Below are positions 2,297-61,662 of a DNA stretch of 64,000 bases, piece after piece. Position 1 is the stretch's first letter, and each line of letters begins with the position of its first letter. The stretch is taken from the NCBI GenBank assembly GCA_020353155.1, contig CP070689.1, positions 2,476,315-2,540,314 on the forward strand, written 5' to 3'. The notes under the pieces are model-generated. The model was not told the DNA's origin. It worked only from the letters and a program-made list of their open reading frames with translations, and ran no database searches. The position numbers and the translations under genes were made by a program. Source of the DNA: Deltaproteobacteria bacterium. GTDB lineage: Bacteria > Desulfobacterota > Syntrophobacteria > BM002.

Positions 2297-2331
2297 GAAA
2301 TCCGCATTCCGCAGTCCGAAATCCCAATTCG
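2297..2331. repeat. tandem heptamer array (GAAATCC family)
   Basis: Five in-phase 7-mers: gaaatcc gcattcc gcagtcc gaaatcc caattcg. They are the reverse complement of the GGATTTC words seen at 61628-61662. Confidence 0.8.
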
Positions 2332-2345
2332 CCCCATGTTCTATG

Positions 2346-3881
2346 CTATGTCTCCTGACTCCTGTTTGTCCAATCTTTTAACAATCGAGCGGCATGATCA
2401 AGGGCTTCCTGGCGAGTGCTGATACGCCCCTCCCACTGCAGTTCAGCCAGAGTGGCTAGAAGTTTTCCAACCATAGGACCAGGTGAAAGATCCAAATAAT
2501 TAATGAGATCATAGCCGCTTACTATAGAAGGTTCCATTTCCCTAGGCTTTAGTTGGTTGTAGTAGAAATCTAGCCAGTTCCGTATTTGCTGGCCCAGTGG
2601 TTGAAGATCAACTTCAACTGAGGCAGATCTTTGCGATGCCCTGTAGTCTGAGGCAAAAAGCAGGAGGAGCGGCCAAAAAAGGTCAGGTCCCAGTCTAAAA
2701 AAACGGGACAGGGCTCGGGTTGAAGTGTGAGCGAGGCTGAAGAGATGGATCGGGCGCATATGCTGGCGAACAAGCTGACTGACAAAGTTTATTTCTTTGT
2801 TGCTCAAGCGAAGACGGAAGCACAGGGAAGCAGCCAACTTTGATCCTACAACTTCGTGACCGTAGAAGTGATTTACACCGTTTTTGCCCACGGATCTGCA
2901 AAGGGGCTTGCCTATGTCATGGAGCAAAACACCTAGTTTAAGTGAAGTCTGTCGCGATCTTTGCCCTGCAAGCTCTTGTGCGAGAATGGCCGCCGCCTGG
3001 TCAGCGTAGTTTCCCAGCAAATATTTGATATTCTTTAGAAAGAACTCCAATGATTCCAACGCTGAGAGGCTATGCTGCCAAACACTGTGATGATGAGAAT
3101 CATGTTGCTGTAAATTACGCATGTCCTCGCACTCTGGCAGCAGCAGTCTCAATATGCCGTCTTCATCCAACATTCTGAGGATTGAAACACAACTTGTGGC
3201 TTTCAGAATCAGCATCAGTTCATCCCTGATACGCTCCACCGCTACCTGACTTAAACCGTGACGGGCTTTGAGTATGCTTTTACGGGTCTGAGCATCGAGG
3301 ATAAGACCGTAAGCTGAAGCTAAACGGTACGCTCTCAAAATGCGGAGAGGATCATCTGAGAGTGAGTTTTCCGAACAAGTACGCAATCTACCTGCCTCAA
3401 GATCCTTAATCCCACCCAAAGGATCGAGGAGATGGACTTCTCTATGGGCCAACCAGGTCGACATATCTAAGGCGAGAGAATTTATGGTGAAGTCACGCTG
3501 ACAAAGGTCATCGAAGATTGATGGGCCTCTCAGTGGTGAAAGGTCAATCACGAAGGACTCTTCTATTTTATCTGTGTGAACAGAAGATATGAGCCGAATC
3601 GTTCCGAACTTCCGATCTATAAGTACCGGGCTGCTACCGGTAAGTCTAGCTACTTCCCTGGCAAGTTCGGGAGATTGATTACTTACGAAGTCTGCATCCT
3701 TACAGCTGTTGCCCAGCAACGTGTCCCGGAGGAATCCGCCCACCAAATAGAGCTGATACTCCTCCCTTTGCGCAACCTCCAGTAAGGCTGAAACTATTCT
3801 GGAGCTCCCAATGAGGTTCTCAATGGAGCTCTCGAGTTTGCTGAGCTGAGTATGAAGGAAATTGGTCATAGGGAGATCCAA
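2346..3881 (-). CDS. cca: tRNA nucleotidyltransferase/poly(A) polymerase-family enzyme with HD domain (CCA-adding-enzyme-like)
   Basis: 511-aa ORF. Head-domain motifs are LYLVGGFLRDTLLG and RDFTINSLA. HD-domain motifs are LLHDIGKP and YGHEVVG. The track start is a TTG at 3881 and the first ATG is at 3869. Confidence 0.75.
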   Translation of the reverse strand: MDLPMTNFLHTQLSKLESSIENLIGSSRIVSALLEVAQREEYQLYLVGGFLRDTLLGNSCKDADFVSNQSPELAREVARLTGSSPVLIDRKFGTIRLISSVHTDKIEESFVIDLSPLRGPSIFDDLCQRDFTINSLALDMSTWLAHREVHLLDPLGGIKDLEAGRLRTCSENSLSDDPLRILRAYRLASAYGLILDAQTRKSILKARHGLSQVAVERIRDELMLILKATSCVSILRMLDEDGILRLLLPECEDMRNLQQHDSHHHSVWQHSLSALESLEFFLKNIKYLLGNYADQAAAILAQELAGQRSRQTSLKLGVLLHDIGKPLCRSVGKNGVNHFYGHEVVGSKLAASLCFRLRLSNKEINFVSQLVRQHMRPIHLFSLAHTSTRALSRFFRLGPDLFWPLLLLFASDYRASQRSASVEVDLQPLGQQIRNWLDFYYNQLKPREMEPSIVSGYDLINYLDLSPGPMVGKLLATLAELQWEGRISTRQEALDHAARLLKDWTNRSQET

Positions 3882-3976
3882 GCAAGAGCAAGTAGATACA
3901 TAGTAGTGAGGTGAGAGTCTGTGTCAAGATAATAGAGGAGATTGGATGCATAACAGGATGGGAAAAAGTAGGAAAA

Positions 3977-4248
3977 CATTACTGTCTAACAAAGTATTTA
4001 TACAGTTGGACAGTATAACTGATTATAAATGCCCATAAAGGGTTATATACATAATATTAATAGTAATTAAACAGTCTAAAAGCCATAATGCCAATAGTGG
4101 ATCAAGCTTATCTATGCAGGTTATTTTGAAGGAATGGGTTAGCTGTTTTAGACAGTATAAGTTATTAATATGATAGGTAGTTTGCGTTTTTAGTAATTTT
4201 TTTTAATTTTTTTCTTGACATTTATACAATATATTTGTACTGTCTAAA
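3977..4248. promoter_or_regulatory. AT-rich divergent control region with five copies of a TTATACTGTCTAAA-like motif
   Basis: Copies: 4147-4160 tttagacagtataa; 4235-4248 ttgtactgtctaaa (13/14 match to the reverse complement of the former, so inverted); 3977-3990 cattactgtctaac; 4006-4019 ttggacagtataac; and a weaker one at 4069-4081. A TTGACA lies at 4215-4220 just before the last copy. Confidence 0.5.
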
Positions 4249-4291
4249 TCATCCATCGCACATGATAACCATAATCAATCAAGGATAACTT

Positions 4292-5803
4292 TTGAGCAGT
4301 CATTTAAACAGTAAAACACTTTCCAGCAAGGAGCTAATTGCTAAGACAGGAATATCTAGGGCCACGCTCAACAATTACATCGCTCTGAATTTAATTCCTT
4401 CTCCTTCGGTACGGCGACCAGAAGAACCTGGTGGCCCGACCAAAATTGGATATTTCCCCTTGTGGGCGGTGGAGAGGATTGAAAAAATTCAAGAGATGAA
4501 AGCTTCCGGAATGAGAATGGCAGAAATTGCCATGTTTTTTACGGATGAGGAGAGCCCTGAGGAGAAGGTGAGGCCACGAGAAGGTTCTGTCGATTTCACC
4601 TATCAATCAATAGAGCGCATAGTTTTTCCTGCTATTCTGGTTAACTCAAGTTGGGAGATCATTTGGATTAACCAAACTGCCGAGAAGGTATTTTTTCAAG
4701 AGTCTGTTCGCGAAATTCCTACTGCAGCCAACCGTAATATATTGCGACTTTTCCTCGAGAAAGGGCTGCCGGGACGTTTTAAAAACTGGAAAGAAATACT
4801 GACCCTGCATTTGCGTCTGGCTAAGCGAGATTTGTCTGAGGACCGGGTCGAACAGATCTGTCGGCAAGTAGAAAGTTGTCCACTGGAAGAACTAAGGGAA
4901 TTGTGGCGTGAGGCTAAACCCTTACAGGAACGCCCCATTACCCAGCAAGACTTAGTTTTAAGGCCCTATAAAGGCAAGAATACCAGGCATACCCTTTTTT
5001 CCAGTGATTTTCGTGAGGGTACGCTACTGCTTTATACTCCAGTTAATATGCAGTTGGACCAGATCTTGAACCTTCTTATGGGTAGAGAGAAACTGGTCAA
5101 AGCTTTACTTTCAAGGAGAATTCCCTCTCTCACATCATTGTGTATTTTAGCCGGTCGATTAGAGTCGAGCCTTCATCTTCGCACTGCCCTACCCCCGCAC
5201 GAGTATTTTGACTTACTAAACCAAGTCATTCTAGCTTCTCATCAATGCTTCAAAGATCACGGTGGTACGCCAGGCCGTTCAATTCAAGAAGGCGTGGTGT
5301 GTTTCTTTCTTTCAGCACCTGACTCACCGAGGGAATACCTTCACTCAGCTATACAATGCGCTCAGGCTCTCAAACAGATTATCACAACTCTGGACAAGCG
5401 CTGGAAATACAAAAAGGTATGGAAAAACACTTTGCAGATGAATATGTCCATTCACTGTGGTGAAGAGTGGCTGGGAACCATACCGTCATCACTGGCCTTC
5501 GATTTTACCGTTATGGGCGAAAGCCTGATAGAAACGGTTAAGCTCAGTGAGTTTGCTGAGGCTGGCTCTATCTGGGCTAGCAAGAGAGTAATTGAAAACA
5601 TGTCGCCAGCAGACCGCCAGCGAGTTGAGTTCGGTGTTCGGCTGGGTACCGGCCGAGAGCGGTTTGTTAGCCCAGGTATTTACTCTCAAGTCAGGGAACT
5701 GCTCAGCACTGACGAATTGCAGCAGAGAGGACTGAAGGAGATAAGTAACCTTGCAGTCACCGAGATAATCAACGTCCACCCACCGGAAGAGCAAGATTTC
5801 TAA
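4292..5803 (+). CDS. MerR-type HTH regulator fused to a PAS-like region and a degenerate class III nucleotidyl-cyclase-homology domain
   Basis: 503 aa, TTG start with AAGGA 7 nt upstream. N-terminal HTH: LSSKELIAKTGISRATLNNYIALNLIPSP. C-terminal cyclase-like block: SLCILAGRLESS...HGGTPGRSIQEGVVCFFLS...MSIHCGEEWLGTIP...FTVMGESLIETVKLSEF. Gly and Glu sit where the two metal-binding Asp are expected. Confidence 0.55.
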   Translation: MSSHLNSKTLSSKELIAKTGISRATLNNYIALNLIPSPSVRRPEEPGGPTKIGYFPLWAVERIEKIQEMKASGMRMAEIAMFFTDEESPEEKVRPREGSVDFTYQSIERIVFPAILVNSSWEIIWINQTAEKVFFQESVREIPTAANRNILRLFLEKGLPGRFKNWKEILTLHLRLAKRDLSEDRVEQICRQVESCPLEELRELWREAKPLQERPITQQDLVLRPYKGKNTRHTLFSSDFREGTLLLYTPVNMQLDQILNLLMGREKLVKALLSRRIPSLTSLCILAGRLESSLHLRTALPPHEYFDLLNQVILASHQCFKDHGGTPGRSIQEGVVCFFLSAPDSPREYLHSAIQCAQALKQIITTLDKRWKYKKVWKNTLQMNMSIHCGEEWLGTIPSSLAFDFTVMGESLIETVKLSEFAEAGSIWASKRVIENMSPADRQRVEFGVRLGTGRERFVSPGIYSQVRELLSTDELQQRGLKEISNLAVTEIINVHPPEEQDF

Positions 5804-5835
5804 TAGTTTTGTTTTGAGCTCAGAAAGTTTATCGA

Positions 5836-7815
5836 GTGATAACAAACAACTATACAGATAATGTGGGTAAAGCATTGAGGTCCAGAGCCAGCTTTTTTTT
5901 CAAGCTCATTGCCAGGACCATGGGGTTCGGTGAACAGAGGGTATACTACGGTCTAGTAATGGCCTTTGGCCTCCTCTTCGTCCTTCCCAGCCTCGGGTTT
6001 ATCAATTTTGCCTTCAAGTATGACTTTTTTGCTGACCGCCAGATAACATACTACTTTCTCTCCATTCTTGTTTTTTCCTATCTGGGGTTTTTCATACTTC
6101 GCTCCCATTCAGATAGAGTCCGTAGTATTTCGGAAGACTTGGAACAGTCCCTTCCCGACATCCCGCGGGAATCTGCAGGAAAGCAAACCAGTGAGCTAAA
6201 TCGCATTGTCTTTTCCTTTCATCAGTTGATCGAAAGGTTGGAGAAAAACAATCAAGCACTTGAATCACGTGCCGGACAGCTTCGATCTCTTGGGGAGGTG
6301 ATGGAGTTTACTCCTGCCAGGCCCAATTCCACCCGTCTGTTGAAATTGGGTTTGCAGAAGGCTTGCGAAGGAATCGGTGCCGAACGTGGGTGGGTATTAT
6401 TGCTGGATGAAAGCCGTCGACACCACTTCAGGGTCGCTTGTGAGGTCGATACAAATGGCAGCTTCCAAAGGCGAGAAGGATGTAAGATTGCTTTTGCCCA
6501 CACCATGGCAAGGGAAGCGGTCACCCAACGCAGTCCAGTATTCCTCGCCTCGCCTTTCTGGCAGGAAGAGCAGAATGAGCCAGATGGGCAGATGATGGAA
6601 GGCGAGGGAACCGCGCTTGCTGTGCCTCTCATAACGGGTAGAGATGTCTTTGGCGTCATGTGTCTCGAAAATAAGAAAGGAAGCTTAACTTTTTCAGCCG
6701 CAGATCTCGATTATGTCCTACCCTTGGCCGCTTTTCTCTCCTACCGCTATGAAAATATAAGGCTTAAGAAGCTAGTTGCCGCCCAAACCAGTCAATACCA
6801 ATGTCTCTCAGCCTTCAACAATATTTGCAACAAGGGACTGGTGCAAGGAAAAGTTTTTCAACTGTTAACCAAAGAATTGCGGAATTTTATACCGGCGACT
6901 CTCTCCTTTCTAGCTCTTTTTGAAAACGATCGAGAACAATTAAAGCTACTAGAAATTGCCTCCATAGAGCCAATTTCTCTTCGTCGAGGTATGACTTTGC
7001 CTCTCAGGCAGAGTCTCTTCAAATTGGTGTTGGAGGAAAACAGGGAGATATATCGAAAGGACGTTGCCGCGACAGTTCACCCCCTGGAAGCGCGCTGGTT
7101 CCGAGAGTTGGGTATCAACTCGTGTTACCTGTCTCCCTTTCGTATTCAAGGAGTCAACGCTGGAATTTTGTTTGTCGGAACCGACTCAAAAAGAGGTTTT
7201 ACCGATCCACAGCGAGTCATCCTGCAGCAAGCACGTGATTACCTCGGATTGGCTATGCACAACCAGATGCTTCTCGAGCAGTTGGATGAGCAAAGTCGGG
7301 AACTGGAAGCTTTCAACAGAATAGGAAGTGTGGTGACTTCTTCTCTATTTGATTTAGACGACGTTTTGGATAAGGTCGGAACCCTCATCGGCCAAATGAT
7401 AACAGTTGAGGCCGGGGCCATTTATCTTCAGGAAAAGGATGGTCTAGCTGTCAAAAAAAGCTTTGGAACTAGAGGTGACAGAATTGAGCCATTCCGGATG
7501 AAAAGAATCGAAGGAATATGTGGCTATGTCATGTCTCGGGGAGAATCGGTAATCGTGAGAGATGCCTCACAAAACCCCCACCTGTCTTCAATGGTCAGAG
7601 CTTTCGGCGGAACAAAAGCACGCTCAGTCCTTTGTGTGCCCATGGTGGTTGGCGGAGAAGTGATAGGTGCAATTCATATGTGGAACAAAGAACATGGCCC
7701 CTTTACGGCCCATGACAATAAATTGATGAAGTCAGTGGCTGCCAGCCTGGCAACAGCAGTTGCAAGTGCCAGGCTCAGTCGGATGTGTCAGGATTTTTCC
7801 ATAAGTGAGGTTTAA
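5836..7815 (+). CDS. membrane-anchored multi-GAF sensor protein without recognisable output domain
   Basis: Two N-terminal hydrophobic helices (YYGLVMAFGLLFVLPSLGFINFAF; ITYYFLSILVFSYLGFFIL) and a coiled linker. These are followed by three GAF-like repeats (GWVLLLDESRRHHFRVA; ALAVPLITGRDVFGVMCLENK; SVLCVPMVVGGEVIGAIHMWNK). Start uncertain: GTG at 5836 or ATG at 5920. Confidence 0.6.
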   Translation: MITNNYTDNVGKALRSRASFFFKLIARTMGFGEQRVYYGLVMAFGLLFVLPSLGFINFAFKYDFFADRQITYYFLSILVFSYLGFFILRSHSDRVRSISEDLEQSLPDIPRESAGKQTSELNRIVFSFHQLIERLEKNNQALESRAGQLRSLGEVMEFTPARPNSTRLLKLGLQKACEGIGAERGWVLLLDESRRHHFRVACEVDTNGSFQRREGCKIAFAHTMAREAVTQRSPVFLASPFWQEEQNEPDGQMMEGEGTALAVPLITGRDVFGVMCLENKKGSLTFSAADLDYVLPLAAFLSYRYENIRLKKLVAAQTSQYQCLSAFNNICNKGLVQGKVFQLLTKELRNFIPATLSFLALFENDREQLKLLEIASIEPISLRRGMTLPLRQSLFKLVLEENREIYRKDVAATVHPLEARWFRELGINSCYLSPFRIQGVNAGILFVGTDSKRGFTDPQRVILQQARDYLGLAMHNQMLLEQLDEQSRELEAFNRIGSVVTSSLFDLDDVLDKVGTLIGQMITVEAGAIYLQEKDGLAVKKSFGTRGDRIEPFRMKRIEGICGYVMSRGESVIVRDASQNPHLSSMVRAFGGTKARSVLCVPMVVGGEVIGAIHMWNKEHGPFTAHDNKLMKSVAASLATAVASARLSRMCQDFSISEV

Positions 7816-7902
7816 ACTTTCACATAAAACTGTGGGTCCGTTTAATTGGTGAGATGATTAGCGTCTTTTGAGTAATAGCAACCTGATGATTGGGAGGAAA
7901 CC

Positions 7903-8343
7903 ATGCAGAACTCCACCCTTGAATCACCTAGAGCTCATATTTTGCTTGTCGAACGAAATCGAGGTGCTCTGGCGCTCCTTGAAACAATGCTCTGTTGGAA
8001 AGGTTATCGGGTAACCACGGTGGTAGATGGGCTAGACGGTTTGGAGAAATTTCGTCACGGACAGTTCAATCTCATTCTCACCAATCTTTCTACTCCTAGA
8101 ATATCAGGATGGGAGTTGGGCCGTATAGTTAAAAACAGCCCTGCTTCGGTGCCTGTGGCCCTCATTACCGGTCTGGATTTCGGCGCTAGACCAGACCACT
8201 CCCCCTTCGATGCGATTATTGCGGAACCCTTCCCCTTTGATGAATTAGAGTGCATGGTGAATTCGCTGATTGAATGTCGGAACGGAGGGACTCTAGAGCC
8301 AAACGCTGTAGGGAGCTTGCCACTGGAGGAAGGCAGGTTATGA
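7903..8343 (+). CDS. stand-alone pseudo-receiver (REC-fold protein lacking phospho-acceptor residues)
   Basis: 146 aa, RBS GGGAGG 5 nt before the ATG. It has the REC topology, but beta1 is ILLVERN (no DD pair), beta3 is LILTNLSTP (Asn at the phospho-Asp position) and beta5 is AIIAEPF (Glu at the conserved Lys position). Confidence 0.65.
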   Translation: MQNSTLESPRAHILLVERNRGALALLETMLCWKGYRVTTVVDGLDGLEKFRHGQFNLILTNLSTPRISGWELGRIVKNSPASVPVALITGLDFGARPDHSPFDAIIAEPFPFDELECMVNSLIECRNGGTLEPNAVGSLPLEEGRL

Positions 8344-9183
8344 TCGCTCCTTGGCACGGCTTTTCAGATATGAGATCAGCGATTCCTCAACTTCCTGTAT
8401 TTCCCTTCGAGCAGGCAGATTACTGCAAAGCCTCTCAACATAATGTCTTTCTAATACCTGGCGGCATGACATTGGCAAATTGAGGTCAAATACCCACCCG
8501 AGTCGTAACAATATCATGTCGTTTCGATTACGCACCGAGCTAAAGTCCGGGACCTTTCTCTCCATAAGTTCAGTCACTATTCCATGGTTGAAAGAATTGC
8601 CAGTAGGTATTAAACCCTCTAAGGTTTCTACTAAATTGCCATGTCCTTCCAGTTCGGCGATGACCAAGCGCCATATGTCCAACTTATCTGCATCCCGGAG
8701 AAGTCGGGAAAAAAAGTCTTGCCGCGGCGAGAGACTCAGAGGTAATTTTCGCAGATTGTGATGGCGAATTGCTACTTGGATAAGCTCCCGTTCATCTGCC
8801 GTTAGGTCCATTAAGATCTCGTGCTGGGATATTACTTCAAGACCTAGCAGGGCGTGATCCTGGGAAGCACTATCAATGAAAGTGGAATAATTCTTCCATT
8901 GAGGAAAGCGGCCTATATCGTGAAACAGAGCAGCTGTCTCAGCTAGTAATAGATCCTCATCGTTCAGACCGGATTCTCGACCCAGAAGGACTATTTCTTT
9001 GCAGGTCCGTTTCGTATGTTGCTCTTTCAGGAGGATAGGCCTCACCCCATCTCCGGGCAGATCGTAGTATAGGGCAACGTAATTCTTGAACCAATTTTTG
9101 AAGTAATCCAGCTTGGCTTGTTGCATGATAATGGAATCCAACCAGCCCCTAAATCTCCCTTTTATCCCCTCCTGCCCGCGCAA
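8338..9183 (-). CDS. HD-domain metal-dependent phosphohydrolase
   Basis: 281 aa with ALFHDIGRFPQ, AIRHHNL and LRDADKLDIW (H...HD...D pattern). The 3' end overlaps the convergent pseudo-receiver gene by 6 nt. Start uncertain: 9183 or ATG at 9126. Confidence 0.65.
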   Translation of the reverse strand: MRGQEGIKGRFRGWLDSIIMQQAKLDYFKNWFKNYVALYYDLPGDGVRPILLKEQHTKRTCKEIVLLGRESGLNDEDLLLAETAALFHDIGRFPQWKNYSTFIDSASQDHALLGLEVISQHEILMDLTADERELIQVAIRHHNLRKLPLSLSPRQDFFSRLLRDADKLDIWRLVIAELEGHGNLVETLEGLIPTGNSFNHGIVTELMERKVPDFSSVRNRNDMILLRLGWVFDLNLPMSCRQVLERHYVERLCSNLPARREIQEVEESLISYLKSRAKERS

Positions 9184-9276
9184 GGGGGATCTGCCATAGG
9201 ATAAAAAACAAGTTGTTTGGCAGGCTCTAAAAGGGGCTTGCTGCTAAGGTCATAGCCTGGAACCATCCGATTATAT

Positions 9277-9304
9277 TTACACTTGGACAATAACTCAATA
9301 ATAT
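9277..9304 (+). promoter_or_regulatory. candidate sigma70-type promoter for the ADP-ribosylglycohydrolase gene
   Basis: TTACAC (9277-9282), 16-nt spacer, TAATAT (9299-9304). Confidence 0.3.
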
Positions 9305-9342
9305 AAGTATAAAGTAGTTATTAGTGAGTAGCCAAGTAAAGG

Positions 9343-9361
9343 GATTTCGAATTTCGAAATC
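9343..9361. promoter_or_regulatory. perfect 19-bp dyad GATTTCGAA-T-TTCGAAATC (candidate operator)
   Basis: Read directly from the sequence. Both 9-bp arms are exact reverse complements around a single central base. The dyad lies 37 bp upstream of the ATG at 9398 and is made of GATTTCG-family heptamer words. Confidence 0.5.
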
Positions 9362-9397
9362 TTTGGGCTCCATATCCATTTCCCTGGAGAGATAATT

Positions 9398-10336
9398 ATG
9401 ACCGAGCCCAACCTTGAGGCCAAGTATTTAGGTGGCATGGTGGGCAGTGCTATTGGCGATGCCATGGGCCAGCTTGCTTTTCACTATCCAGACAGAGACA
9501 AGTTAACCGCCGCAGTAGAGCGAGTGGCGGAATTGAGCTACACCGATGATACTGCCATGGCAATCGGGTTGGCCACTTCCCTCGTCAACAAAGGGCACCT
9601 AGAGGGGCGGGATCTCGGAGATACCTTTCGCCTTAATTTTGAAAAGGAACCATGGAGAGGCTATGCAGCAGGACCTCCCACAATATTTTCTTTGGTCCGT
9701 TCCAAGGGAATCACCTACGCGGAGGCAGCTCAGAAGCTCTTCGGTGGCAGCGGATCTTTTGGTAACGGAGCTGCCATGCGCATTGCTCCCCTAGGTCTTC
9801 TCTTTCATGATTCCGAGAAGATTTATGAATTGGCTTGTGCTTCGGCTGAAGTCACCCATGCGCACCCAATTGGAAAGGATGGGGCGGCGGTCCAGGCTTT
9901 GGCTGTAGCACAAGCTGTGAAGCTCGACTCGACAGAGGAATTCCTTCCGTCAGGGGTTGTTCGTAGCCTAATAGACTTTGCTCGTACTGGTGAAATCAGG
10001 GCAAAGCTCGAGCTCCTTAAGGAACTGCTCCATGAAGATGTCCCTCCAACAATTGCGGCTAAGCAACTAGGCCAGAGTGTTGCCGTACAGGAGTCACTGC
10101 CTTTCGCCATTTATTCCTTCCTTAGATATCCAAGTTCCTACGAGGACTGTCTCTATTGTGCTATTATGCATGGCGGCGATCGAGACACCCTGGGTGCTAT
10201 GGCTGGAGCTATGTCAGGGGCTTATCTAGGGTTTGAGGCAATTCCGCTCTTGTGGCGTGAGAAGCTGGAAAATCGGGAGAAAATAGAGAAGTTGGCATTA
10301 GAGTTGGCGCGGAAAACACTCAGCGAGACAGTCTAA
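9398..10336 (+). CDS. ADP-ribosylglycohydrolase family protein (DraG/ARH-like)
   Basis: 312 aa with GSAIGDAMG, YTDDTAMA, GNGAAMRIAPLG and HGGDRDTLGAMAGAMSGAYLG, the typical ARH-family metal-site motifs. Confidence 0.8.
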   Translation: MTEPNLEAKYLGGMVGSAIGDAMGQLAFHYPDRDKLTAAVERVAELSYTDDTAMAIGLATSLVNKGHLEGRDLGDTFRLNFEKEPWRGYAAGPPTIFSLVRSKGITYAEAAQKLFGGSGSFGNGAAMRIAPLGLLFHDSEKIYELACASAEVTHAHPIGKDGAAVQALAVAQAVKLDSTEEFLPSGVVRSLIDFARTGEIRAKLELLKELLHEDVPPTIAAKQLGQSVAVQESLPFAIYSFLRYPSSYEDCLYCAIMHGGDRDTLGAMAGAMSGAYLGFEAIPLLWREKLENREKIEKLALELARKTLSETV

Positions 10337-10438
10337 ATAGACGAGAAGAGCGATAATGGATATCAAACTAGGAACCCCCGTGCCTTTTCCGCATTCTGAG
10401 CTGTAGATGCTATGTAACGATGACCTTGGGAGCTAGCT

Positions 10439-11503
10439 ATGACTGAATTGAAAAGCCAGGGAGAACCGACCGTCCTCGTTCACCGACATGACCGCATGAT
10501 GACCATCGTTCTTAACCGTCCAAAAGTCCTGAACAGTCTTAATTTAGAGATGATTAGGCTGATCGACAAGGTCTTGGACGAGGCTGAGGCAGAGAAGGGT
10601 TGCCAGTTTATTTTGTTCTATGGGGCCGGAGAAAGGGGGTTTTGCGCCGGGGGAGATATCAAGGCACTTGCACAGGCTGTGCAGGAGAAAACCGCTCCGT
10701 CGGCAGAAAAGATCCTGGAAGAGGAATACGACTTATGCCTGAGGCTCCATCGTTTTGCAAAACCCATAATTGTCTTGGCAGATGGCATCACTATGGGCGC
10801 AGGACTGGGGTTGGCTGCTGCGGCTGACCTAGTGGTGGCCACAGAGAGGACCCGTATGGCCATGCCAGAGACCAGAATCGGTTTTTTCCCTGACGTGGGA
10901 GCAACTGGGTGGATGTTCAGCAAATGCCCCGAAGGTTATCCGGAGTATCTGGGTCTTACCGGATATGAAATGGTTGGCGCGGAGGCAGTGCGCGTGGGCT
11001 TTGCCAGCCACTTGCTTAGTTCGGAAAGATTGCCGGAGCTGGCAGCTGCACTTGAAGGATATTCCGGGAGCCTCTCCCCTACCAGATCACAGGGGGCGCA
11101 AACTCTATTTGCAGGATTAGATCATTTTTTCGACAAAAATATTCCCATGAATCAAGACATGGACGAGTGGGTGGCTCTCTATTTTGCCGGTAAGAGTTCA
11201 ATTGCAGAAATTATGAAATCACTGCGCCAGTGTACTATACAGACCCACTTGTGCGACGGGGTTTTCACAAGGCTGGCCGAGCGTTCGCCAACGGCAGTGG
11301 TGCTTACCCTAAAGCTTCTGCGCCACAATGAGGCCCAACCTATAGAGGCGGTTTTTCGAGCCGATCTTAAGGCCGCCCGTTTCATTGTGGCACATCCCGA
11401 CTACGTGGAGGGTGTGCGGGCTCGTCTAGTAGACAAAGACGATAAACCCCAGTGGCAGCCCGCTACTATTGAAGAGGTGGGCGACCTGGACATTAAACTT
11501 TAG
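10439..11503 (+). CDS. enoyl-CoA hydratase/isomerase superfamily, 3-hydroxyisobutyryl-CoA hydrolase-like
   Basis: 354 aa with GERGFCAGGDIKAL, ADGITMGAGLGLA and MPETRIGFFPDVG. The long C-terminal extension is typical of the ECH_2-type hydrolases. Confidence 0.75.
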   Translation: MTELKSQGEPTVLVHRHDRMMTIVLNRPKVLNSLNLEMIRLIDKVLDEAEAEKGCQFILFYGAGERGFCAGGDIKALAQAVQEKTAPSAEKILEEEYDLCLRLHRFAKPIIVLADGITMGAGLGLAAAADLVVATERTRMAMPETRIGFFPDVGATGWMFSKCPEGYPEYLGLTGYEMVGAEAVRVGFASHLLSSERLPELAAALEGYSGSLSPTRSQGAQTLFAGLDHFFDKNIPMNQDMDEWVALYFAGKSSIAEIMKSLRQCTIQTHLCDGVFTRLAERSPTAVVLTLKLLRHNEAQPIEAVFRADLKAARFIVAHPDYVEGVRARLVDKDDKPQWQPATIEEVGDLDIKL

Positions 11504-11666
11504 ACTCGAAGCCAATTGCTCGAGTCAGACAGTGCCGAGATATGTGATATGGGATGAATAATCTCCTAGACTGATGCAATATCCTTCTTTGATTGTAAAT
11601 CGCAGATCTCTCATCTCATATACCACATCTATTTCAATAAGCCTTGTTAGGGTGGCAGGAGTTTGA

Positions 11667-12881
11667 ATGACAGATCAACCGTTCATCCTTGGCGTAAACT
11701 ACTGGCCGCAGAGAACGGCCATGTTTATGTGGCGGGAGTTCGACAGAGCAACCATAGACGAAGATATGGCAATAATTAACGGTCTGGGTCTCTCTTGTAT
11801 AAGGATTCCCCTCCTCTGGGAGGATTTCCAACCAACTCCCAAAAACGTTCCTGCCGCGATGTTGGATCGGCTGGTGCAATTGCTAGAGGTGGCAGATGCG
11901 AAAAATCTCAAAGTGGTAGTGACCCTCTTTGCTGGACACATTTGCGGCTTGACCTGGCTTCCTCCTTGGATGCTTTTGGCTTCTGTTGATAGGAATCAAT
12001 CTCCAGTATTTTCCTCGGGCAAAATTCGCTTCAATAAAATTAGGAATTTTTACGCTGAAACTGAGATCATGGAAAGGCAAATCTATTTCCTCGGTGAGTT
12101 GGGAAGCGCTGTATCTGGGCACCCTGCCCTTTTCAGCTGGGATTTGGGCAATGAACCCTCTATGTGGTCCAATTCTCCCGACAACTTCGCTGCTGAGCTT
12201 TGGCTGAAGGCAATGACTGAGACCTTAAAAGAACAGGACGATCGATTGCCTCTCACCTTGAGTTTTCATGTGAGCGATCTCGGACGAAGAGAAGGTCTGG
12301 CGCCAAGAATGGCATCTAAATACCTGGATTATTTATCTATTAATGGTATGCCGCAGCGTGTTCCCTGGGCTGAGGATCCTTTTTCTCCGGTTTTTCCCTC
12401 CTTTCTGGGTTCTGTGACCGGCTGGCTTGGGAAAGGTCCTGTGATGATCCAAGAATTCGGATTAGCCACCGAGACCACTTTGTCCGTACCTCGAGGTTAT
12501 GAGTCGGTAAGCAAGGGTGAGCAACTCTTGGTCAGTGAGGAAGATGCAGCCTTGTTCGCTGAAGATGCGCTATTGCACCTGCGGAGATCACACGTGATGG
12601 GTGCGTTCTGGAAGTCCTACGGAGACTACCATCCCTCTATCTGGGAATGGCCGCCCTTAGACAAGCGCACAATCGAGCGCTTCTCTGGATTAGTTCGCCA
12701 TGACGGTACCCCCAAGGTTGCAGCTTCAGTGTTTAAGTCTATGCCTATTAGTTTAGAATCAGATGGGATCTCCTCGGAATGGCTTGATCTGACCCATGAG
12801 GAATACTATCAATATCCGGATCAGCATTTGAAAAGGCTCTATGGCCGTTTTCGGGAGTATTGTTCCTTGCATAGAGCATAG
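11667..12881 (+). CDS. TIM-barrel glycoside hydrolase (GH5-like), apparently cytoplasmic
   Basis: 404 aa. Candidate acid/base is WDLGNEPS and candidate nucleophile is MIQEFGLA. No signal peptide. The stop codon (12879-12881) lies inside a heptamer array. Confidence 0.6.
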   Translation: MTDQPFILGVNYWPQRTAMFMWREFDRATIDEDMAIINGLGLSCIRIPLLWEDFQPTPKNVPAAMLDRLVQLLEVADAKNLKVVVTLFAGHICGLTWLPPWMLLASVDRNQSPVFSSGKIRFNKIRNFYAETEIMERQIYFLGELGSAVSGHPALFSWDLGNEPSMWSNSPDNFAAELWLKAMTETLKEQDDRLPLTLSFHVSDLGRREGLAPRMASKYLDYLSINGMPQRVPWAEDPFSPVFPSFLGSVTGWLGKGPVMIQEFGLATETTLSVPRGYESVSKGEQLLVSEEDAALFAEDALLHLRRSHVMGAFWKSYGDYHPSIWEWPPLDKRTIERFSGLVRHDGTPKVAASVFKSMPISLESDGISSEWLDLTHEEYYQYPDQHLKRLYGRFREYCSLHRA

Positions 12882-12974
12882 GGCATGGAGCAAAGAGTAT
12901 GCGGCGAGATAGGCGAGACGTGAGGTCGAGCGAGACGAGGATTTAAAGGCAGAGGTTACAGTTAAATACGAAAC

Positions 12975-13200
12975 GTGGGAAAGTGAAGGATGTGAGATCT
13001 GAGATGTGGGGATCAAATTCAGGAATTTAGGGATTGAGGAAACCGGGGCCCCGCCCTGGAAGGGTGGGGACTAAGCGGAGCGCAGCGAGCGCGAAGAATT
13101 CAGGGATTTTTCGACACCGCGCTCAATTCCTTAATCCCTTAATTCGCAAATCCTGAATGTCTAGATCACATATCCCACATCAGCAAATGTAAATGTAATG
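12975..13200. repeat. long mirror-symmetric composite of heptamer arrays (GAGATGT + ATTTAGG words, then their complements)
   Basis: Left arm: gtgggaa agtgaag gatgtga gatctga gatgtgg ... ttcagga atttagg gattgag. Central GC hairpin: ccccgccc-tggaa-gggtgggg. Right arm: ctcaatt ccttaat cccttaa ... gatcaca tatccca catcagc. The arms are imperfect complements. Confidence 0.75.
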
Positions 13201-13263
13201 TAGGGTGGTGATTGCCAGTGAGAGTGTTTTTTGTTCAATTCAATCGACTGCGAGAATAGGTGA

Positions 13264-14205: not shown

Positions 14206-14298
14206 GCACTAAACACTAAGCACTAAGCACGAGGAACAGTGCAGAAACAGGTAATCATTTTGTTTTTCGGTGCATAGTGCCTAGATCCTAGTGCCTAG
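14206..14298. repeat. inverted heptamer-array element (CACTAAG family) between convergent genes
   Basis: Left arm is cactaaa cactaag cactaag cac. Right arm is gtgcatagtgcctagatcctagtgcctag, i.e. the complement words. The 16-nt string actaagcactaagcac (14215-14230) recurs at 41832-41847. Confidence 0.8.
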
Positions 14299-14302
14299 TT
14301 TG

Positions 14303-16313: not shown

Positions 16314-16757
16314 CTATTGCTCAATTCCCAAATTCTTCTTGGCCTGCTGGATGTCACCTGCATTAAAGAACTCCGGATAGTAATCCAAGGCAATTCTCTC
16401 CAAGGTCAGTCCACCCTCGTTGTCCAGTTTTGTGGCGATTTCTTCATTTCCAACTCGGATCCGCCATTGAACAAAGGGTATGATTCTTAAGTAATTACCT
16501 TCAAATTCCCTCCATTTCCCAATCCTCTTCGCTTCAGCTGAACCGATTATCCTCTCGGTGTCCTCCTCGACCTTGTAGAGAAGTTCCTCCAGCGTCGGCT
16601 TGCTCCCCGTAAGTTGATTTTCTTGCTTCTCCACGTATTCGGCCAGGGCTCTCAAAATAAGTTCTCTCAAGGTGATGCCCTCAAGTGCCGCGGTGGCTTT
16701 CGCCTTGCGGTGGAGTTCCCTCGGAAAGGGTCTGATAGTGTAGGCTGAGTCGGCCAT
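16314..16757 (-). CDS. ribbon-helix-helix (CopG/Arc-like) domain protein with unknown C-terminal domain
   Basis: 147 aa. The N-terminus YTIRPFPRELHRKAKATAALEGITLRELILRALAEYV fits a beta-strand plus two helices RHH pattern. AT-rich DNA flanks the gene on both sides. Confidence 0.5.
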   Translation of the reverse strand: MADSAYTIRPFPRELHRKAKATAALEGITLRELILRALAEYVEKQENQLTGSKPTLEELLYKVEEDTERIIGSAEAKRIGKWREFEGNYLRIIPFVQWRIRVGNEEIATKLDNEGGLTLERIALDYYPEFFNAGDIQQAKKNLGIEQ

Positions 16758-48765: not shown

Positions 48766-48816
48766 GCAGCTGACTTATGTCTTCTGCCCTCTGAGGTCTG
48801 ACCCCTGACCTCCGTC

Positions 48817-50763
48817 CTAAGTACTTCGCGGCAAGAGCATTGACCTGCCTGGGCTCCTAGATTCATTCTCCGCCGTGACCCTTATGGCCCGCCTGCCGCT
48901 CACCGGGCATTCGTGTTCGCAAATACCGCAACCAATACAGAGCTTTGGATCCACGTAAGGTTGCTGCAGTCTCACCTGAATTGAGATGGGACTATCAAGA
49001 TCTGGTGCAGAATTGGGCGCAATATTACCAGTAAGGGTTATACTATTTTTGCTGTTCTCCAATATTCGCCAACGATGTTCTCTGCCGTTGCGGGTGGTCA
49101 TGACATAGTAATCCCCTGTAGCCACTTCTCCCGACTCCAGGCTGCTGTCCATAAGCTCGAGCCGCTGTCCGGCAATTTTAGCCAGACGAAACTTACCCCC
49201 TCTCACAGTGCTGAAATACTCTCGGGTGAAGATGGCTTTTGGGCTCACAGGGCAATTTTCCTGGCAGACAATACACGGCCTGTCCATGGCCCAGGGCAGA
49301 CAGCGGCCTCTGTCTACAAACGCTGTGCCCAATCTAATTGGACCGGCCTGGATAAATTTACCTCTTCCGAGTTTCTCCTCCAGACTTATAGGGCGGATTG
49401 CGGCGGTGGGGCAGATGTGGGAGCAGGCGACACAATTAAGCTGGCAGCCACTGGTGCCGATGCGAAAATTGAGGACGGGGCTCCACAATCCTTCCAGTCC
49501 GCTTTCCAGGCTGGCGGGATGAATTATGTTGGTTGGACAAATTCGCATGCACTGGCCGCATTTAAGACAGCGACTGAGAAAATCAGGCTCTGCTAAGGCG
49601 CCAGGAGGACGAATTACAGAAGGTTGCCAGTTGGGCCCTACCAAGCCTGTCAGACGAACTATAGGTATGGCCACTGCGCCTGAGAGAAAAGAGGCGAGAA
49701 ATCCCCGCCGGGAGAGATCAGGCAATGCAACTTCGCCGGTTTCAGAGATGGTTGTGCGGTAACCCACGAGGTTGTGTGGACAGTCGTCAAGGCAGTTCAT
49801 GCATAGGACGCACTCACTTATTCGTATTTTTTCGGCTGGCTGGCAGGCTCCTTCACAATCAGTGTCACAGAGATGGCAGTGGCTGCATTCGCTGCTCGTT
49901 TCAACTACACCTATTCTCCAGATCGAAAACGCAGACAAGACGCCCAAAAAGGCTCCCAAGGGGCAGACGAACCTGCAGTAAAAGCGGGGCACCTTGAGGT
50001 TCAATAAAACCGCGGTGAGGAAGACAGCACCGATAAACCATGAGTCTGAGTAGTAGCGCTGGATGGGTGAGATCCTCTCTGTAAGAGGCAGCAAGGTCAG
50101 ATTGATGGATCGATGGATCAATGGGATCGGATCGAGCAAACCTGTCTGCAACGAAGCCACGACCAAAGTGGATGTTGGAAATAGTAAACCTAGCCCCATC
50201 CACAGGGCTAGGAGAATGAGCAGAGTTGCCAAGGCTTTTTTGCTATCGGTTACAACTCTGAGCAGGGAAAGCATGGCGAGTCCTGCCAGACAAATTACTG
50301 CCGCTATGGAGAACAGCACCGGCTTTTCGGGTACTACTCTGAGAAGATTCGATAGCAGGGAACCTGCAGCCGCTGTAAGTAAAAAGATGAGCAAGTAGTA
50401 TTTGATCGATTGGCCGGGATGGTATTTGTTGAGGGCTATTTTGGCTGAGATGGCCCTCCTTCGCCTGGCAAGATAACCAATGAAATGATGAATGGTGCCA
50501 AAGGGGCATACCCAACTACAGAAGAACCTCCCCAATAATACAGTTAGAATTACAGTGACTAAAGCCCAGAGCAGACCTTTGTAGAGGGAATTGGTGCTGA
50601 GCATTGTGGCCACCGCCACCAGAGGATCAAGCTGCAGTAGCCAGTTGACTGGCCAGCCCCTCAGTTGCCACCACTCCACTCCCAAAGTGCTGACTATACA
50701 TAGCCAGATTAGGAGAAGGAGGAAGAAGGTCTGGCTGATGCGTCTAACGGTTACTATTCGCAT
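48817..50763 (-). CDS. NapH/NosR-like polytopic membrane polyferredoxin
   Basis: 648 aa. The membrane half carries FFCSWVCPFGT and FYCRFVCPLGA. The soluble half has at least four CxxCxxCxxxC(P) motifs: CHLCDTDCEGAC, CVLCMNCLDDCP, CLKCGQCMRICP and CIGCGICEHECP. Confidence 0.8.
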   Translation of the reverse strand: MRIVTVRRISQTFFLLLLIWLCIVSTLGVEWWQLRGWPVNWLLQLDPLVAVATMLSTNSLYKGLLWALVTVILTVLLGRFFCSWVCPFGTIHHFIGYLARRRRAISAKIALNKYHPGQSIKYYLLIFLLTAAAGSLLSNLLRVVPEKPVLFSIAAVICLAGLAMLSLLRVVTDSKKALATLLILLALWMGLGLLFPTSTLVVASLQTGLLDPIPLIHRSINLTLLPLTERISPIQRYYSDSWFIGAVFLTAVLLNLKVPRFYCRFVCPLGAFLGVLSAFSIWRIGVVETSSECSHCHLCDTDCEGACQPAEKIRISECVLCMNCLDDCPHNLVGYRTTISETGEVALPDLSRRGFLASFLSGAVAIPIVRLTGLVGPNWQPSVIRPPGALAEPDFLSRCLKCGQCMRICPTNIIHPASLESGLEGLWSPVLNFRIGTSGCQLNCVACSHICPTAAIRPISLEEKLGRGKFIQAGPIRLGTAFVDRGRCLPWAMDRPCIVCQENCPVSPKAIFTREYFSTVRGGKFRLAKIAGQRLELMDSSLESGEVATGDYYVMTTRNGREHRWRILENSKNSITLTGNIAPNSAPDLDSPISIQVRLQQPYVDPKLCIGCGICEHECPVSGRRAIRVTAENESRSPGRSMLLPRST

Positions 50764-50788: not shown

Positions 50789-50847
50789 CCAGAGGTCGGA
50801 AGTCGGATGTCAGAGATCAGCTATTTATTCTGTCCACTGACCTCTGG
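50789..50847. repeat. intergenic inverted repeat with heptamer words (GGTCGGA family)
   Basis: ccagaggtc (50789-50797) is complementary to gacctctgg (50839-50847). In between lies ggtcgga agtcgga tgtcaga gatcagc. Confidence 0.6.
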
Positions 50848-50879
50848 CATCTGTCCGCAAGCCGTAGCTCAAGGTCGGG

Positions 50880-59523: not shown

Positions 59524-59735
59524 AGGGTCTACCTAATTTTTTTCTCTTACTGATTCTCCCAACACTTCACTCTAAAAGTCTAGCCCATACCATCTCTACA
59601 GTCACGAAGTAAAGAAATTGAGGAATTATGTAATCTGAGGAGATTAAGCAGAAATGTCGTTTTCATTCCTTAATCCCAGAATTCCTAAATTTCTTTCGGA
59701 TTTACCTGTAAGTTCCTCGTTTTTTGCCTTTGGTG

Positions 59736-59763
59736 CTTAGTGCCTACTCCCTAGTGCCTAGTC
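59736..59763. repeat. tandem heptamer array (CTTAGTG family, single orientation)
   Basis: cttagtg cctactc cctagtg cctagtc. Confidence 0.7.
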
Positions 59764-60280: not shown

Positions 60281-60404
60281 CCTACCACCATACCTCTTGC
60301 GGCTGAACAGCTCCTTTGTTAAAATTCTGACAGTACATCGGAGATCCTTCGATTAGAAGCTGATAATATTCACCTTCCACAAATCACTTTCCACCATGAT
60401 TGAG

Positions 60405-60465
60405 GTTTCAGTGTTCCAATTTTAGCCTTCGTGTTTCTTCTCCGGACATCTGAAACCTGAAACCT
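60405..60465. repeat. GGTTTCA hairpin element, second copy of the 32087-32166 element
   Basis: aggtttcagtgttc (60404-60417) is identical to 32087-32100. ctgaaacctgaaacc (60451-60465) is identical to 32135-32149. The loops are also similar (13/18). The element ends 12 nt before the DUF169 RBS. Confidence 0.85.
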
Positions 60466-60488
60466 TTTATCACCAGAAGGGAGGCCCT

Positions 60489-61280
60489 ATGGCTGAAAAA
60501 AACTTCAAAGAAATAAGTGATTTCATCAGGGATGAACTGCGGCTAAAGACCCTGCCTGTAGCGGTTAAGTTTCTGAAAAAAAAGTCTGATTTTCCCGAAA
60601 AAACACGTCAGCCTTCGGTGGTTCTGCAGAAGAGAGTAACTATTTGTCAGGGAGTTACTTATGCAAGAGTATACGGTTGGACCGTAGGTCTTACCCGGGA
60701 GGACCTGATCTGTGTACCGGCAATGATTGCTTTCGGCTTCAGTGGGGCTGATGATCCTCCGGCTACCTTGGCCAGGTTATTTTGTGAGGTGAATTTCCAC
60801 GATGAGGAGAAGGAAGCCCGCAAAGGGATTGATTCGATGACTCTTTTGGACAATGGCAGAATTGAGGCCCTAGTTCTCGCTCCCTTAGCCAAGGGCTTGT
60901 TTGAGCCAGATACGGTTGCCATTTATGGCAATCCAGCCCAGATTATGCGTTTGGTTCAGGCCCTAGTTTACCAAAATGGTGAGCGGTTAAATGGAACTTT
61001 TGGGGGCAAGGTGGAATGCAGTGAGTACTTGATTGGGCCCTTCACTTCACAGGCTCCTAAGATTGCCATTCCAGGCATGGGCGATCGCATCTTTTCCATG
61101 ACCCAGGACGACGAGATGGTTTTAGCCCTGCCGGGCAAAGATCTTGCTGGGCTTAAAAAGGGCTTGCAGGAGGCAGGAAACAAGATTGGTGCTAGATATC
61201 CTGTTACCTTCTACCAAAACTTCCAACCCGATTTTCCCAAGCCTTATAAAATACTAGGAGATGAGCTGGGTATCCTGTAA
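60489..61280 (+). CDS. DUF169-like protein
   Basis: 263 aa with RBS GGGAGG. LKTLPVAVKFLKK and the overall size resemble DUF169/COG2043 proteins (assignment from memory). Confidence 0.5.
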   Translation: MAEKNFKEISDFIRDELRLKTLPVAVKFLKKKSDFPEKTRQPSVVLQKRVTICQGVTYARVYGWTVGLTREDLICVPAMIAFGFSGADDPPATLARLFCEVNFHDEEKEARKGIDSMTLLDNGRIEALVLAPLAKGLFEPDTVAIYGNPAQIMRLVQALVYQNGERLNGTFGGKVECSEYLIGPFTSQAPKIAIPGMGDRIFSMTQDDEMVLALPGKDLAGLKKGLQEAGNKIGARYPVTFYQNFQPDFPKPYKILGDELGIL

Positions 61281-61348
61281 GGACAGAGCTCAAGAGGGCG
61301 GCCCTGTTGCTGGTGGCGGGAGCTGAGAGTAACCAGAGAAGGTCTTTT

Positions 61349-61543
61349 TTAATGCTCGGATTTTTTTCCCGAGGAGATCATTTGCTCTGGGTTGGCAAGA
61401 AAGGCACCGAGGATAAACCCGAGTAGACCGAGATATCCGAAGACAACCTGCCAATTTCCTGAAAGCTGCCAAACCAGACCTGCGCCAACGATGGCTGGAA
61501 TTCCAAAGACTATAGTGATTCCCGCTTTTCTTTCTGGTTGCAT
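61349..61543 (-). CDS. small two-TM membrane protein
   Basis: 64 aa with two hydrophobic helices (ITIVFGIPAIVGAGLVW; VVFGYLGLLGFILGAFL). Confidence 0.4.
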   Translation of the reverse strand: MQPERKAGITIVFGIPAIVGAGLVWQLSGNWQVVFGYLGLLGFILGAFLANPEQMISSGKKSEH

Positions 61544-61627
61544 TTGATCACTCCCTTGAGGATACTTTATTCTAATGTGCAGATTTTCACTTTATAGCGA
61601 AAAGGGGGCAGGATGTAAAGAGCAAAG

Positions 61628-61662
61628 GGATTTCGGATCTCGGATTGCGGATTTCGGATTTT
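61628..61662. repeat. tandem heptamer array (GGATTTC family)
   Basis: Five in-phase 7-mers: ggatttc ggatctc ggattgc ggatttc ggatttt. Confidence 0.85.

Follow-up and report, generated by a model that had tools for sequence, protein, structure and literature searches.

What are the short tandem repeats that occupy the spacers between ordinary genes in a 64-kb stretch of the genome of an uncultured, sulfate-reducer-like deltaproteobacterium (contig CP070689.1, positions 2,476,315 to 2,540,314; hereafter the window)? A first-pass annotation made from the letters alone had drawn attention to 7-nucleotide (nt) words that stand in tandem and often face an array of complementary words. This heptamer-array feature is real, statistically robust, and lineage-wide. 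It consists of ~30-nt modules of four to five imperfect 7-nt words, often with a mirror-image partner with which a hairpin is formed, and the architecture has already been described for Geobacter metallireducens and for cyanobacteria, this clade adding new words. The reading we prefer, at a probability of about one half, is that the arrays are dispersed DNA modules akin both to repetitive extragenic palindromic (REP) sequences and bacterial interspersed mosaic elements (BIME) and to short tandemly repeated repetitive (STRR) sequences, that they are neutral or mildly selfish, and that the RNA stem-loops they encode are a side effect.

A period-7 signal in the spacers

Intergenic DNA, taken as DNA outside long open reading frames (ORFs), makes up 12.6% of the window. 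Tandem Repeats Finder assigned period 7 to 23 of its 38 rows and period 8 to 7 of them. A lag test requiring at its strict setting at least 16 matches in 21 positions found 19 segments with period 7, 4 with period 8, and none at periods 4 to 6 or 9 to 11 in the window, with periods 3 and 12 empty as well; a looser threshold gave 27 period-7 segments, 24 of them intergenic. Eighteen of the 19 strict segments are intergenic, and the sole "coding" one is the array at 12869-12897, which crosses the 3' end of ORF 11667-12881. The octamer hairpin at 22340-22430 is formally coding too, but only owing to an over-extended TatD ORF, in which the Pfam match begins at residue 55. Autocorrelation of the intergenic DNA has its maxima at lags 7, 14, and 21 (0.323, 0.306, and 0.297 over a baseline of ~0.262), whereas coding DNA shows period 3 alone (0.245 at lag 7), so that within the window the proposed enrichment of 7-nt periodicity in spacers over coding DNA is borne out.

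Arrays reach a density of 3.0 per 10 kb and occur in about one in three spacers that measure 40 nt or more. Every class of spacer is occupied, as first noted (tandem, 10/27; divergent, 4/9; convergent, 1/5). The intergenic character of the signal thus stands, but the original count of 18 or more loci comes down to about 14 to 17 spacers at the strict threshold. The ATTTAGG/CCTTAAT words, first listed with the other word families, belong to the period-8 words of the window.

That such arrays are chance low complexity or an assembly artefact has a probability close to nil. In its favour, the genome is a metagenome-assembled genome (MAG), and relatives have N-runs in their spacers. Against this, 19 of 20 mononucleotide shuffles of the window contained no qualifying period-7 position and the other contained 2, only periods 7 and 8 are enriched, arrays occur in six related assemblies, and a contig of 99.67% identity, which comes from another sample and a separate assembly, repeats the same arrays base for base.

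Modules probably copied between loci

We refer to the word families by letter: A (ACTAGGC ACTAGGr ACTAwGC ACTAGGC AC, that is, four heptads plus AC), B (GCATRGR), C (GGTTTCA), D (GGATTKC), E (GAGATGT-type), F (GCAGCNR), G (GGTCGGA and TGACCTC), and the period-8 H words. The elements of the window, to none of which a strand is assigned, are the following.

2297-2330: unpaired D array (GAAATCC/GGATTKC words), 15 nt downstream of the stop of a minus-strand gene (2346-3881)
11545-11637: weak E hairpin between two plus-strand genes
12869-12897: unpaired B array (GCATRGR x4), overlapping the end of ORF 11667-12881
12988-13178: nested composite hairpin with outer E arms at 12988-13010 and 13158-13178 (RNA folding energy, -82.5 kcal/mol); inside it, period-8 H arms at 13013-13040 and 13124-13152, and a GC-rich stem-loop (13044-13067) at the centre
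14197-14299: A hairpin (arms 14201-14230 and 14270-14299) filling a convergent spacer; DNA z-score, -4.5
21427-21516: octamer array CCAATATT x4.4 with inverted partner (21427-21442 and 21479-21494)
22340-22430: octamer hairpin in the Dabb-TatD spacer; TGGAGTGA arm at 22344-22372, complement at 22402-22427
23126-23223: E hairpin in the spacer between the aldehyde:ferredoxin oxidoreductase (AOR) and ThiS genes, with a separate terminator (23281-23307) nearby
28930-28982: unpaired B array of ~7 units in the divergent ThiS-HAD spacer (~5 units in the ortholog in L001, a relative introduced below)
32049-32081: unpaired B array
32087-32164: C hairpin (GGTTTCA arm 32087-32114, TGAAACC arm 32134-32164); z-score, -4.35; absent from the L001 spacer
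36690-36758: D words around a small GC-rich stem-loop in a divergent spacer; D also in the L001 ortholog
38557-38587: F module, CAGCGGG CAGCTAG CAGCAAG CAGCCGG CAG, with 30 nt identical to positions 5404-5433 of L004, another relative
38592-38622: unpaired A module, four heptads plus AC
38675-38755: E hairpin, arms of 34 nt, 85% complementary and 12 nt apart; z-score, -5.4
40896-40984: period-8 GAGCATAA array (40896-40928), then B' words (CTATGCT x4.3, 40944-40984), directly 5' of an adh_short gene
41816-41909: A hairpin flanked by two plus-strand genes, beginning 5 nt past a stop codon
48666-48751: A hairpin flanked by two minus-strand genes
48790-48818: unpaired G' array (CTGACCY words), abutting the stop of gene 48817-50763
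50790-50850: G hairpin (GGTCGGA and TGACCTC words) inside a minus-strand gene cluster; z-score, -3.2
59611-59696: hairpin of H-like words, 20-nt arms, 90% complementary
59733-59763: unpaired A' module, with an 18-nt inverted exact match to 38590-38607
60402-60466: C hairpin just 5' of the ribosome-binding site (RBS) of gene 60489-61280
61626-61663: unpaired D array (GGATTTC x4.9)

Several lines of evidence indicate that these are structured modules copied between loci and not arrays made independently in place. Their length is bounded: 55 arrays from three genomes measure 21 to 41 nt, apart from one 89-nt composite, and hold 3 to 6 units. Variants within family A, whose modal size is four units, are specific to position. 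At position 7, unit 2 has C in 12 of 25 arrays, against 22 to 24 of 25 in the other units (chi-square P = 6.5e-5), and at position 5, unit 3 has G in 9 of 25 (P = 2.8e-4), in a sample made up partly of metagenome contigs chosen with a pattern that biases some positions. Such position-specific variants therefore argue that the arrays are copies of a structured master element.

Distant loci also share exact strings, and the three first reported are where they were said to be: 22 nt at 12989 and 38689 (within the E hairpin at 38675-38755), longer than any other exact repeat shared by distant parts of the window; 16 nt at 14215 and 41832; and 15 nt at 12876 and 32067. Both arms of the C hairpin recur, with strings of 14 to 15 nt common to the copies at 32087-32164 and 60402-60466, around loops that differ, and the loops of the A hairpins are unrelated to each other and variable in length. 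Partner arms mismatch at 6 to 8 of 28 positions, arms of different hairpins at as few as 4 of 28; in-situ inverted duplication was rejected for this reason, the partners not being each other's closest relatives. The F module is identical at 30 of 30 nt in the window and in L004, where the flanks are unrelated and the neighbouring genes differ, though the family-B DNA polymerase (PolB) genes of the two genomes are only 72% identical in nucleotides. Finally, modules nest within one another, E outside and H inside at 12988-13178 of the window, B outside and F inside at 12920-13180 of L001. The first-pass view that the arrays are related dispersed copies, not chance low complexity, is upheld by the shared strings, the position-specific variants, and the identity of the F module.

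These observations bear directly on the idea that the arrays are local mutational by-products, arising by in-situ slippage in a 7-nt register, with template switching to supply the complementary arm and no copying between loci. The idea has a natural footing, since heptanucleotides are the commonest class of long simple-sequence repeats (LSSRs) in many bacteria, a general excess noted by Mrazek et al. 2007 (as cited in PMC4679880), who proposed replication slippage for them. One orthologous B' array does differ in units (7 versus 5), the trait is lineage-specific, as expected from a change in replication or repair, and other metagenome contigs hold perfect arrays of up to 16 units. We nevertheless consider it improbable: identical multi-unit variant orders appear at unrelated loci and in different genomes, the variants are position-specific, the length is bounded at 3 to 6 units, unit number is unchanged between strains 99.67% identical, and partner arms are not each other's closest relatives.

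On the dispersed-module reading, the unit is a module of ~28 to 37 nt containing four or five degenerate heptads, each with a conserved 4- to 5-nt core and 2 to 3 variable positions, and the clade has at least seven word families. New intergenic sites would receive copies either of single modules or of inverted pairs, with unrelated spacers of 12 to 150 nt between the arms, as the shared variant order and the identical copies suggest; among candidate agents, the obvious ones are a RAYT-like single-strand transposase and recombination between copies. The internal 7-nt register most likely stems from slippage-type amplification at the founding of each family, an expansion that would no longer be active. 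Modules would survive only where reading frames are unbroken, and the fact that a period of 7 cannot stay in frame would account for their restriction to spacers. REP elements of Escherichia coli act in RNA as 3' exonuclease barriers, processing sites, or partial road-blocks. Transcribed inverted pairs would likewise yield long stem-loops lacking a U-tract that could serve in these three ways, effects we regard as by-products and not as a selected function.

Modules can reshape the 3' ends of genes, because the first heptad of the A module supplies the TAG stop (14203-14205) of the epimerase gene 13264-14205 and because ORF 11667-12881 ends in a B array. Two general ideas were rejected. A three-frame stop barrier, in which a heptad with a stop codon would place it in every frame, fits A, B, C', E, and G' but is not general, because D (GGATTTC/GAAATCC) has no stop on either strand; a HutP-like UAG-N4 reading fits only A and B. 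The GC-rich stem-loop CCCGCCC(T)GGAAGGGTGGGG at 13044-13067 has its reverse complement CCCACCCTTCGGGCGGG between D words at 36705-36722, and it is a second, unrelated dispersed mini-element nested in heptad modules.

Hairpins and strand symmetry

An array is followed by its complement at 12 loci in the window, with arms 12 to 150 nt apart. Pairing was rightly described from the start, but it involves only about half of the arrays and is not the usual state; arrays of families B and F and most of those of D are unpaired. RNA folding of the 12 loci gave -18 to -82 kcal/mol, and eight of the hairpins folded as single-stranded DNA have z-scores of -1.7 to -5.4. By themselves, the arms give 0 to -7 kcal/mol, except for the F arm at -12. 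As the first-pass annotation held, these are not plain intrinsic terminators: a T-run follows none of the 12 on either strand, the next 9 nt never including more than 5 T.

If the hairpins had been selected as RNA, one transcript strand might be expected to bear the mark. Of 16 hairpins whose neighbouring genes run in the same direction, 5 fold better on the sense strand, 9 fold better on the antisense strand, and 2 are tied, and the sense and antisense strands have 65 and 69 G:U pairs, respectively; the same folding and G:U comparisons in a phage contig (L323, described below) showed no asymmetry. With neither asymmetry, there is no sign of selection on one transcript strand, and the data favour a strand-symmetric origin at the DNA level, at a modest statistical power.

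The corresponding rival explanation is that the hairpins are selected RNA structures, namely, U-tract-independent terminators or attenuators, mRNA-stabilising 3' stem-loops, or RNase III sites that tune operon expression. Several features speak for it: the predicted hairpins are very stable (-18 to -105 kcal/mol), many begin 0 to 15 nt from a stop codon, one is the sole structure in the convergent spacer 14206-14302, relatives tend to refill the same spacers with a hairpin of another family (Dabb-TatD, AOR-ThiS, and Epimerase-PepS9, for example), and the phage has arrays between its structural genes. Yet the U-run is missing from all 12 hairpins, neither the window nor the phage gives the sense strand an advantage in folding or G:U pairs, about half of the arrays are unpaired, elements also lie in divergent spacers and 5' of RBSs, and separate canonical terminators adjoin them. 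We therefore hold selected RNA function to be distinctly unlikely.

Canonical terminators share spacers with heptad hairpins, from which we conclude that the organism uses ordinary terminators. One on the minus strand at 23281-23307 (GGGGGG-loop-CCCCCC and then a T-run) follows the AOR gene and is kept in L001 (~15060-15085) with an altered loop, directly adjoined by heptad hairpins that are not homologous. At 40600-40650, midway along a 759-nt "divergent" spacer, stands a terminator-like hairpin (GCCCCCA...TGGGGGC, then TTCCTTTTTT), upstream of which no gene is called; it may mark the end of a small unannotated gene or small RNA.

Turnover among relatives and occurrence elsewhere

The window's PolB (25976-28201) matches UCG20412.1 at 100% identity, a protein labelled "MAG: Deltaproteobacteria bacterium" and encoded on a 3,210,294-bp contig; the next relatives of this PolB belong to MAGs labelled Syntrophobacterales and Desulfobacteraceae. 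The highly iterated palindrome HIP1 occurs once in the window and is not enriched. A cyanobacterial origin was rejected on these two grounds, and the cyanobacterial flavour at first implied was wrong. The 40 window proteins that we scanned are products of ordinary housekeeping genes.

Syntenic loci were taken from six relatives. Nucleotide identity to the window is 99.67% for L344 and ~88% for L001 to L003; PolB protein identity is 84% for L205 and L207, 80% for L206, and 79% (72% in nucleotides) for L004 (CP070735.1). All six relatives carry period-7 arrays, at 1.3 to 5 per 10 kb, while most of 80 other genomes, sampled around the PolB gene, have none, and the nearest outgroup (CP070692.1; PolB identity, 76%) has 1 array in 22 kb. 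A high array density is thus a trait of a narrow clade, given that the 80 outgroup genomes are near zero.

Between close strains the arrays are stable. Over 15.6 kb, L344 differs from the window by 43 substitutions and one 9-nt coding indel; in ~9 arrays the heptad number is unchanged throughout, with a single substitution inside an array. With no array indel at 99.67% identity and unit number differing only at ~88%, these are not hypermutable microsatellites. L344 (JGI 3300010412, a different sample) was compared with positions 22600-38201; its substitutions cluster in the AOR gene (11 differences in 24486-24600), and its 9-nt indel is in frame in the ThiS-like gene at 22968.

At ~88% identity the picture changes, and the same spacers hold another family, another number of units, or nothing, which favours the dispersed-module reading. 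The coding regions of L001 and the window are collinear, and the alignment breaks at the spacers. Between Dabb and TatD, the window has the octamer TGGAGTGA hairpin and L001 an AGATTGS heptamer hairpin; between AOR and ThiS, the E-word hairpin faces a GAATATC-type one; and several arrays are found in only one of the two genomes. In L205, the convergent Epimerase-PepS9 spacer holds a B' array in place of the A hairpin. Some arrays are kept in L001: B' upstream of HAD, with 5 units against 7 in the window, and D upstream of a 475-amino-acid (aa) gene, with changed sequence or unit number. Unlike most heptamer arrays, which are not kept at orthologous spacers, the octamer array of the TatD-ArsA spacer is also retained across genomes ~12% apart (CCAATATT at 21482-21516 versus AATATTCC at 17061-17099 of L001).

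A further possibility, to which the retained arrays lend some support, is that the modules are binding platforms for oligomeric nucleic-acid-binding proteins reading a short core every 7 nt. On DNA these might be nucleoid-associated proteins or global regulators, on RNA TRAP- or HutP-like proteins, with inverted pairs joining two oligomers. HutP reads UAG triplets spaced by 4 nt, a period of 7, and the A and B words have TAG every 7 nt. A conserved core of 4 to 5 nt, 2 to 3 variable positions, and a fixed 4 to 5 units would suit a tetrameric or pentameric reader; the F module is identical over its 30 nt across genomes whose neutral divergence is saturated; and the same idea has been put forward for the Geobacter elements (PMC2700814). 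However, with seven or more unrelated cores, one genome would require as many readers, orthologous spacers swap family or lose the array, and elements lie in both orientations and in all spacer classes with no positional rule relative to starts or stops and no strand bias. No candidate protein was identified. We regard the platform idea as tentative and, on balance, unlikely.

The architecture is wider than the clade and reaches phages, as metagenome contigs of 32 to 74% GC and one phage contig indicate. Isolated pairs of an array and its complement occur in Desulfobacteraceae (L014), Geobacteraceae (L021 and L026), Methylomirabilota (L067), and Acidimicrobiia (L018). In a metagenome scan, a two-unit A pattern hit at least 120 contigs of 32 to 74% GC, many with an array and its complement, for which no over-representation is claimed. 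Contigs near 50% GC with families A, B, D, F, and G (L131, L146, L151, L158, and L187) are probably members of the clade. The D pattern was found at 70 IMG/VR loci (median, 3.5 arrays per 10 kb; median GC, 63%). Of particular interest is L323 (IMGVR_UViG_3300037843_000663, positions 1-14211, 65% GC), which encodes a capsid protein, portal, S49 protease, and large terminase and carries 22 heptamer arrays in 14 kb, mostly GGAGTTA/GGAGGTA paired with TAACTCC, between structural genes. Its G-rich words resemble Shine-Dalgarno sequences, and near 5880, 6675, and 7333 a CAT (a would-be minus-strand ATG) directly adjoins an array where no ORF was called.

Other contigs drew our attention for their words. 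The module GTTAGGC GCTAGGC TTTAGGC is present in four unrelated contigs of 50 to 53% GC (L147, L156, L183, and L195), with a TAGGC core and two variable first positions, and TAGGC-core heptads occur in contigs from 32% to 74% GC. Dense CCCTAAA/TTTAGGG arrays in L103 and L168 are the plant-type telomere repeat, and these are probably eukaryotic subtelomeric contigs matched by chance. N-runs of exactly 100 nt stand between called genes in L004 (26-125, 2905-3004, 9584-9683, 15633-15732, and 22029-22128), with longer ones in the JGI contig L002 (9371-9610 and 10527-10703); they may reflect either gaps left by the assembly where spacers are rich in repeats or masking by the data provider.

A bolder, and in our judgement improbable, extension would make all heptad-built inverted modules one cross-phylum class, made or used by a shared machine, such as an oligomeric protein that recognises a core at 7-nt intervals or else a single-strand transposase or nuclease with a 7-nt register. 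Such a class would colonise cellular genomes of 32 to 74% GC as well as phages, and STRR, the Geobacter and Beggiatoa repeats, and the present elements would be one system.

Several observations weigh against reading the elements as dispersed modules of a neutral or mildly selfish kind. The family A statistics rest in part on the pattern-biased contigs, the unbiased window copies (n = 8) following the same trend. The single arms, unlike those of classical REPs, are internally periodic and not palindromic. No transposase, RAYT, or Y1 protein was found among the 40 of ~58 window proteins scanned, the window being 2% of the genome. A real phage with so many arrays is hard to square with pure junk, and the persistence of B' at HAD and of D at the 475-aa gene over ~12% divergence could reflect a local function. 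Finally, filled and empty orthologous spacers of the window and L001 differ by replacement of the whole spacer, with no clean insertion or target duplication seen of the kind that marks miniature inverted-repeat transposable elements (MITEs), so that no transposition footprint is demonstrated.

Comparison with known repeat systems

Intergenic repeats of tandem heptamers have been on record since 1990 (STRR) and are still poorly understood. The window adds an uncultured Thermodesulfobacteriota-type clade with such repeats, together with constraints on any model: fixed length, position-specific variants, stability at 99.7% identity, turnover at 88%, and no RNA-strand signature. These constraints argue for the copying of structured DNA modules over free slippage or selected terminators. 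The gaps between phage genes and the wide GC range suggest a phenomenon broader than the literature implies, and for annotation, the elements account for breaks in assemblies, for ORFs called too long, and for genes whose ends or stop codons fall inside arrays.

Rfam covariance models gave no match to the window at the gathering score or at an E value of ≤1, and a literature search with the A word as a string found no relevant paper. The intergenic enrichment thus holds and the lineage is uncatalogued in Rfam, but the kind of element is already known elsewhere, and the initial statement that the architecture is not that of a described family was overstated in view of two published accounts (PMC2700814 and PMC2408588). 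The choice of STRR and REP/BIME as the nearest analogies was right.

A classical REP is by itself an imperfect palindrome; its GTAG head is conserved, and a RAYT gene is associated with it. The present elements share with REP, BIME, and REPIN the ~30-nt extragenic multicopy module, the inverted doublets with variable linkers that form hairpins, the rapid turnover between relatives, and the sites near stop codons.

With the cyanobacterial STRR they have in common tandem heptanucleotides that are dispersed and intergenic, in several word families per genome, and complementary arrays that may occupy one spacer. Mazel et al. are said to have given, in 1990, CCCCAGT, TTGGTCA, and CAACAGT as the words of STRR1-3; these are never tandem in the window, whose host is not a cyanobacterium. 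The hupS spacer of Nostoc holds TTGTCAG arrays and complementary, CTGAC-containing arrays of the STRR type (PMC2408588).

The TAACTGA repeats of marine Beggiatoaceae, cyanobacteria, and Bacteroidetes are intergenic heptamer arrays of 2 to 6 copies (MacGregor 2015, PMC4679880), and their patchy cross-phylum distribution resembles that seen here. Those arrays nevertheless use one word, which is nearly always in direct and not inverted orientation and clusters immediately 5' of start codons, while the window has many words, frequent inverted pairs, and no positional preference. The window arrays are short, imperfect, and fixed in length, whereas STRR and TAACTGA arrays extend up to dozens of units.

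The closest architectural parallel comes from the paper on the genome of Geobacter metallireducens (Aklujkar et al. 2009, PMC2700814), which describes 49 elements of four tandem heptanucleotides and three classes of paired opposite-strand sites at variable distance, with 4x8, 3x8-9, or 5x7 tandem units. Those elements are missing from G. sulfurreducens and were left without a function, with binding of IHF or HU offered as a guess. An independent Geobacter MAG (L026) makes the class visible again, because its loci 16324-16366 and 17962-18044 hold GGGACCA arrays, which resemble the Gmet_H4 consensus, and a GCGTGCT/AGCACGC inverted pair. Like Gmet_H4 and Gmet_I, our elements have 3 to 5 tandem units of 7 to 9 nt and are mostly intergenic, present in tens of copies, and often paired on opposite strands at variable distance (in 12 hairpins here), with several word classes per genome. 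They differ in that the Gmet words (GGACCGG, GTTGCTYN, TCTCCGTS, and MTYCTGA) are not tandem in the window, in that the host belongs to a different phylum-level lineage, and in a density that is apparently higher, at ~4 arrays per 10 kb, which would amount to roughly 1,000 or more per genome.

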